Part shown: one piece after another, positions 12,338-12,553 of the stretch
How positions within the stretch are numbered: the stretch's first letter is position 1
Layout of the letters: each line of letters starts with the position of its first letter
Origin: Octopus vulgaris
Lineage: Eukaryota
DNA length: 64,000 nt
Direction of reading: 5' to 3'
Assembly (NCBI GenBank): GCA_951406725.2
Contig: OX597824.1
Location: 47,988,001 to 48,052,000, forward strand
The notes under the pieces: model-generated
Database searches by the model: none
Told to the model about the DNA's origin: nothing
The model's input: only the letters and a program-made list of their open reading frames with translations
Made by a program: the position numbers and the translations under genes

Positions 12338-12553
12338 TTAAGGTTCGTCAGCATATGGGATACTTTCGGCACGGTTTAGCCATGGTTTACTTGGACATTC
12401 ATCCGTTTCAGGAGAACTTGGAAGATTATTTTTTTTTAATGGTCCAGAGCGTAATTGAAGAGATGGCAAGCTGGCAACAGAGGGCCGACTGCGTTTGTCA
12501 TAGCTGTCCAAGTGAGAATCTAAATCCATTTGAAAAGCGTTTACAACACGAAT
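12338..12553 (-). CDS. PMCA: PMCA alternative terminal exon 3: [25 protein letters not shown]...[10 protein letters not shown] (71 aa, no PDZ ligand)
   Basis: Acceptor ttcttttgttttcag|ATT; phase 0; first 7 codons differ from exon 2 only at synonymous positions. Confidence 0.88.
   Translation of the reverse strand: MRVVNAFQMDLDSHLDSYDKRSRPSVASLPSLQLRSGPLKKNNLPSSPETDECPSKPWLNRAESIPYADEP

Follow-up and report, generated by a model that had tools for sequence, protein, structure and literature searches.

The PMCA (ATP2B) gene of Octopus vulgaris contains three alternative terminal exons, which we refer to as E1, E2, and E3. The comparisons presented here indicate that E3 is a real, ancient, and strongly conserved molluscan variant of splicing at PMCA site C. 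In the interpretation that we favor, and to which we assign a probability of roughly 0.6, E3 encodes the last of three alternative tails of the molluscan pump, and goes back to an E2-like exon that was duplicated in tandem when cephalopods, gastropods, and bivalves had not yet split. The E3 form would share its calmodulin core with the E2 form and end without a PDZ ligand, and its tail would likely change where the pump is placed and how it is regulated, instead of acting as a vertebrate 'a'-type switch.

Alternative tail exons of the octopus PMCA gene

The window, which is the whole stretch of 64,000 nucleotides that was analyzed (contig OX597824.1, positions 47,988,001 to 48,052,000), carries the 3' part of the PMCA gene on the minus strand. 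All positions below are counted from the start of the window, and all features are located on the minus strand unless otherwise stated. The PMCA exons mostly showed a 90% to 100% match to an annotated Argonauta protein in tblastn searches, and the identity of the host gene was indicated by a match of an orthologue to PF12424, the C-terminal calmodulin-binding domain, with an E-value of 4e-15. The upstream constitutive exons, which encode the P domain and transmembrane segments, were located at 37814 to 58069, with approximate limits, by tblastn against Argonauta and cuttlefish proteins and from the Pfam domains of the orthologue. The last constitutive exon (35314 to 35499) codes for the calmodulin-binding domain's N-terminal half, and it ends with a phase-0 splice donor at 35314. 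According to a passage in PMC12693652, calmodulin binds PMCA via a 1-18 motif that extends from W1 to F18, with the consensus IRVVNAFR in its second half. The splice junction falls inside this motif: residues W1 to Q11 are encoded by the exon at 35499 to 35314, in which the W1 codon is found at 35346 to 35344, and residues I12 to F18 are supplied by each of E1, E2, and E3.

The first alternative terminal exon, E1 (23282 to 23674), encodes 131 amino acids ending with ETSI and provides the most b-like of the three tails, as judged from the alignment of its Mya orthologue to the b tail of PMCA2. In this alignment, which involved a single orthologue, approximately 58 residues were covered, among them the half of the calmodulin site that is shared, and ETSI is the terminus of both E1 forms. 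The second exon, E2 (22012 to 22185), encodes 58 amino acids, is terminated by TGA and ends with DTSV, which is a class I PDZ pattern. The third exon, E3 (12341 to 12553), encodes 71 amino acids ending with ADEP. It is followed by a TAA stop codon (12340 to 12338), and is preceded by a splice acceptor with a pyrimidine-rich tract ending with TTTTCAG (12554 to 12603).

All three exons are in phase 0, matching the donor at 35314, and as homologous neighbors of the same phase that serve as alternatives they represent tandem duplicated exons. Each of them alone matched the PF12424 profile from positions 16 to 17 and onward, at a sub-threshold E-value of about 0.03. Scores against the three exon starts were computed for each of the 1507 AG sites that follow the donor on the minus strand. 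E1, E2, and E3 obtained scores of 46 to 49, which partly reflect self-matches, compared with 18 for the runner-up, and no fourth copy of the tail was identified among these sites within the window. AATAAA or ATTAAA signals are present 3' of each of the three stop codons; such signals are common in AT-rich DNA.

It was also noted that one intron contains a reverse transcriptase fragment on the plus strand (43266 to 43688; Pfam RVT_1, E = 3e-8), antisense to the PMCA gene, which is likely a LINE remnant. Similar translations were observed in several introns (approximately 31600 to 32000, 42140 to 42870, 50770 to 51200, and 62170 to 62430), and these likely represent a dispersed repeat family.

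The E2 and E3 exons matched each other within the window with a tblastn E-value of 6e-7. Their first seven codons contain three differences, all of which are synonymous (GTT/GTA, AAT/AAC, and TTC/TTT). Positions 12 to 18 of the calmodulin motif in E3, IRVVNAF (12533 to 12553), consist of the same residues as in E2, and the 1-18 motif as a whole is identical in the two forms. After the core, FRMALDAR in E2 corresponds to FQMDLDSH in E3, and further downstream PASPRID corresponds to PSSPETD. A previous reading of the DNA, hereafter the sequence-only reading, had described the codons and residues at the two exon starts, the three synonymous differences, and the ADEP terminus, and all of these statements hold at the level of single letters. 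It had also described a shared P.SP..D block, which is indeed present in both tails in the window; across the molluscan E3 tails, however, just L.SSPE is invariant, and the leading P and the D vary. Three synonymous changes alone would be thin evidence of selection, and the strong indications come instead from conservation across species. The introns that flank E2 and E3 showed no extended similarity, the best matches being 19 nt upstream and 26 nt downstream, and a recent duplication at the DNA level was therefore rejected.

Conservation and age of the E3 tail

A search with the E3 tail as the query retrieved 33 of 56 candidate proteins. The 27 proteins that could be taxonomically assigned were all from molluscs, namely 1 cephalopod, 10 gastropod, and 16 bivalve records. 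The same 33 proteins, out of 7999 that were scored, were obtained with an E3 profile, and there were no non-molluscs among the species-assigned matches. The identity of the E3 exon was 97% to Argonauta and 60% to 76% to the gastropod and bivalve proteins. The same exon is thus found in database entries such as Argonauta isoform X8 (97%) and Tridacna A0A2R2YX00 (66%), which are annotated merely as PMCA isoforms; the terminal P of the octopus tail is an octopod addition. The octopod-like E3 tails, which were those of the window, Argonauta, and two more, all have this added residue and also differ in the segment where other molluscs read PSVISLQSLQ.

Among 16 aligned E3 tails from three mollusc classes, 29 positions were invariant. 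The mean pairwise identity of 22 full-length E3 proteins was 76% for the core, 82% for residues 8 to 33 of the tail, 66% for residue 34 to the end, and 91% for the last 8 residues. The corresponding tail values for 19 proteins of the E2 type were 54%, 18%, and 20%, a contrast that is somewhat inflated because likeness to E3 was what brought proteins into the E3 set. Both sets were chosen subsets, from which partial or odd-ended models were left out. The residues R13, Q19, and D21 were each invariant in 22 of the 22 E3 proteins, and so were the blocks KRSRPS, SSPE, and IPYAD. The E3 tail in the window had a median identity of 70% to other E3 tails, compared with 34% to E2 tails.

Of the two duplicate tails, E3 appears from these identities to be the better conserved. 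We consider E3 to be a real exon and a duplicate of an E2-like exon that has evolved under strong purifying selection. Both the duplication and the selection had already been proposed in the sequence-only reading, and the selection is borne out by the conservation across species.

Two PMCA gene copies located on different contigs were observed in land snails and in Babylonia (P0019, P0035, P0047, P0065, P0007, and P0034). One of the land-snail paralogues, P0065, carries a degenerate E3, which suggests that selection was relaxed after the gene duplication.

We give next to no credence to the idea that E3 is an unexpressed relic or an artefact of gene prediction, given its open frame and canonical acceptor, the 29 invariant positions in the aligned tails, and the spliced isoforms annotated in many species, together with a matching cloned cDNA from a clam. 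A Tridacna PMCA of 1198 amino acids was cloned by RACE from the inner mantle (KU724109), as described in a passage of PMC5641333. The Tridacna protein P0020, which has an E3 tail and is likewise 1198 amino acids long, equals KU724109 in species and length, and the link between them is based on these two properties and not on sequence. The passages on Tridacna PMCA in the literature consulted discuss splice site A and not the E3 tail. The sequence-only reading had suggested that the E3 form might be a fast neuronal or muscle isoform. Since the E3-matching clam cDNA comes from calcifying inner mantle, the occurrence of this form is probably wider than nerve or muscle, although mantle is a mixed tissue.

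The sequence-only reading had regarded the duplication as lineage-specific, which is taken here in the cephalopod sense, and had named the presence or absence of the exon in Nautilus and in non-cephalopod molluscs as a means to date it. A recent duplication of E2 in cephalopods would fit with the codons for the residues shared by E2 and E3, of which 6 of 9 are identical compared with 3.5 expected at saturation (raw counts). Against this stand the orthologues in 10 gastropod and 16 bivalve records, the higher identity of the window E3 to other E3 tails than to E2 tails, and the dissimilar intron flanks. Moreover, a grouping of the cephalopod E2 tails with the octopod E3 tails was rejected in a reduced set of 35 rows (p-AU = 0.003). 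The cephalopod-specific origin was rejected on the basis of the non-cephalopod orthologues and this test, and we see virtually no chance that it is correct.

The phylogenies point to an older event. In a tree inferred from the core of 60 proteins, forms ending with E2 and forms ending with E3 were interspersed across cephalopods, gastropods, and bivalves, and core branch lengths of 0.000 indicate that the E1 and E3 forms in Mya are isoforms of one gene. In the tail tree (86 rows, 54 columns), from which P0013 and P0080 were left out because their exon starts were missing, 37 of 37 E3 rows formed one clade with support values of 99/93. A reduced tail tree with 35 of the 86 rows likewise placed 14 of 14 E3 tails in one clade (98/100); the tail trees rest on 54 to 57 columns, and the bootstraps had not settled. 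From the E3 orthologues, the single E3 clade, and the rejected grouping of cephalopod E2 and E3, we infer that the duplication predates the split of cephalopods, gastropods, and bivalves. The main mollusc classes split in the Cambrian. The date of the duplication should be taken as a minimum, as neither an origin on the mollusc stem (p = 0.37) nor a deeper origin (p = 0.56) was rejected.

The Solemya gene model P0012 contained E2 and E3 in tandem, with part of E2 joined in frame to E3. The join is probably a prediction artefact, and would otherwise resemble the read-through forms of the c/d type in vertebrates.

An exhaustive search of cluster representatives gave 19 matches. True E3 tails accounted for 4 of these, with E-values of 1e-30 or better; another 14, at 1e-7 or worse, were tails of the E2 or annelid type, and the remaining match was unrelated. 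E2-like tails are present in the chiton, cuttlefish, and nemertean records that were retrieved, which is no indication that E3 is absent from these groups because there was one representative per 90% cluster. The annelid-type and nemertean tails (Helobdella, Tubulanus) combine an E2 start, RMGLD, with an E3-like DS[FY]DKRS block. They differ from E3 in that SSPE and IPYADE are missing, and their best E-value against the E3 profile was 1e-7, compared with 1e-30 or better for true E3 tails. A single record with an annelid-type tail, P0073, starts with FQMD like the molluscan E3 and continues like the annelid-type tails. It grouped with the annelid-type tails in the free trees, and a placement with E3 was not rejected (p = 0.56), so that P0073 may be either a deeper E3 orthologue or the result of a parallel change. 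Because P0073 shares the FQMD change, an acidified flank of the calmodulin site might conceivably, though we consider this unlikely, have arisen several times in animals, in parallel to 'a'.

Comparison with the vertebrate 'a' tail

The vertebrate 'a' form results from the inclusion of a 154-nt exon, which causes a change of reading frame (passage in PMC8835232), and 'a' forms have a higher basal activity and a lower calmodulin sensitivity (passage in PMC10690453). Vertebrate site C resembles the molluscan arrangement in that position 12 of the 1-18 motif is the first to be encoded by alternative sequence, that the exons which replace each other are homologous, and that one form lacks a PDZ ligand, whereas the molluscan E3 is one of three options. 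The post-junction sequence in the PMCA1 chain of PDB entry 6a69 starts with MDVVNAFQ, and the b sequence starts with IRVVNAFR. We take the MDVVNAFQ insert to be the start of the a-exon. The change from a basic to an acidic residue at position 13, which is seen in PMCA1, is regarded as general among the 'a' forms.

It had been proposed from the sequence of the window that E3 has converged on the 'a'-type tail, with an increased acidity immediately behind the calmodulin core and no PDZ ligand. Both of these properties were recovered here. Over the 10 residues that follow the junction, the net charge amounts to +3 in E1, +2 in E2, and 0 in E3, and by hand count it is -1 for a and +2 for b in PMCA1. 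Motif positions 19 to 30 of E3 (12497 to 12532), which include the invariant Q19 and D21, form an acidic patch with a net charge of -4, compared with +1 in the E2 orthologues. C-terminal PDZ patterns of classes I to III, formulated as regular expressions, matched 1 of 29 E3 ends and 18 of 23 ends in the E2 group; among the E1 tails 2 of 2 matched, and among the annelid-type tails 1 of 9. E3 and 'a' have in common a reduced net charge towards the C-terminal end of the 28-residue calmodulin peptide, and Q19, which is present in the PMCA1 a-exon, the sole a-exon compared.

With these similarities, and given the activity and calmodulin sensitivity reported for 'a' forms in PMC10690453, E3 might be functionally analogous to the 'a' tail, a state that early molluscs would have attained independently and whose main purpose would be to bind calmodulin less tightly, to raise the basal activity, and to speed up cycling. 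We regard this as unlikely. The 1-18 motif of E3 is unchanged and retains I12-R13, with R13 found in all 22 of the 22 proteins, whereas the PMCA1 a-exon carries D at this position inside the core, and the residues responsible for the charge change in E3, 19 and 21, are not part of the core. The vertebrate 'a' exon is a frameshifting cassette upstream of the b exon, whereas E3 is a terminal exon that keeps the frame, supplies a stop codon of its own, and is located downstream of the b-like E1. Strong constraint in E3 reaches far beyond the calmodulin site and up to the last 8 residues, and the sole E3 cDNA linked to a tissue is the one from clam inner mantle. The likeness to 'a' is thus partial and the proposed convergence weakly supported: the loss of the PDZ ligand, Q19, and the acidic flank are shared, but the core motif, R13, and the mode of splicing are not.

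Existing catalogues list tandem duplicates of C-terminal PMCA exons for vertebrates, flies, and nematodes, and Drosophila PMCA and C. elegans mca-3 show substitution of tandem duplicated exons as in the molluscan tails. The C-terminal exon pair of ATP2B1-4 has been dated to Bilateria and paired with Drosophila PMCA (a passage and supplement rows in PMC8373072; Table S5 rows in PMC9741552). Mollusc PMCA exons are not treated in these parts of the two papers, and there is no occurrence of ATP2B or PMCA in the main text of PMC4494069, though it is cited for the ATP2B dating.

Because the exon pair is dated to Bilateria and E1 is b-like, some of the a-likeness of E2 and E3 could be inherited, in which case both would share with the vertebrate a-exon a single ancestral copy in Bilateria, and E1 would derive from the b copy. 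It agrees with this that the E1 orthologue in Mya aligns furthest along the vertebrate b tail among the molluscan exons. However, the order of the exons is opposite to that predicted, since the b-like E1 is located upstream of E2 and E3, whereas in the PMCA1 chain the b sequence comes after the a-insert. E2 and E3 also both start with the b-type pattern IRVVNAF, and inheritance is in our view very unlikely. If E2 represents the ancestral state, Q19, D21, and the loss of the PDZ ligand were likely acquired independently of vertebrates, because these are the features that separate E3 from E2.

Proposed function and significance of the E3 tail

In the favored interpretation, in which E3 mainly alters location and regulation, the choice between E1, E2, and E3 would be made by alternative use of acceptors and poly(A) signals, and the E3 pump would stay autoinhibited and activated by calmodulin. 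The replacement of R19 by Q, together with the acidic patch, may modestly weaken calmodulin binding or autoinhibition. Since the net charge of the first 10 residues is lower by two than in E2, the kinetics might shift in the direction of 'a' by more than the modest amount assumed here. No second calmodulin site was evident in the downstream part of E3 in a crude scan, where the best 14-residue hydrophobic moment was 0.35 to 0.36 and the most basic 14-mer had a charge of +3.

The invariant KRSRPS and SSPE blocks may be phosphorylation sites, their serines having, to our eyes, the appearance of kinase sites. The conserved terminal motif R.ESIPYADE (12341 to 12373), which in octopods is extended by P, contains no PDZ ligand. 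ESIPYADE is a candidate partner-binding or sorting motif that would replace PDZ anchoring; we read it as a short binding motif because a nearly invariant octapeptide ends an otherwise variable tail. The main difference of the E3 pump would likely lie in its location and partners.

We also considered IPYADE as a homologue of the Leu-Ile sorting region of the b tail (which includes HIPLI), but the alignment gave no support, and this stays a lead. The sorting role of the Leu-Ile motif is cited second-hand in a passage of PMC8096745. More far-reaching, and distinctly unlikely, is the idea that molluscs invented a PDZ-free, weakly autoinhibited PMCA before the shelled classes split, with the nearly invariant ESIPYADE as an undescribed targeting motif for the delivery of calcium across the shell-forming epithelium, kept in the shell-reduced octopods for another job.

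AlphaFold2 models of one E3 form and one E2 form had a mean pLDDT of 54, with values below 50 for the tails, and were too poor for use. No PMCA was found among the PDB sequences with the E3 profile alone, and the ESM Atlas contained no usable match for E3.

The kind of event described here is known for the PMCA family and the E3 exon is already included in annotated isoforms, and E3 is thus not a new kind of system. We found no description of the molluscan three-exon arrangement or of the E3 tail in open-access full text, with subscription journals mostly outside the scope of the search. The finding indicates that a three-way switch in the regulatory tail of the pump has been maintained by molluscs since before the main classes split, and that the tail without a PDZ ligand is the better conserved duplicate. 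E3 is an isoform to resolve in RNA-seq analyses and in the design of antibodies, both for neurons of squid, Aplysia, and octopus and for shell calcification. Because the calmodulin core is identical, any kinetic difference between the E2 and E3 forms would map after F18, and the comparison of the two would constitute a clean natural experiment on the residues beyond F18.
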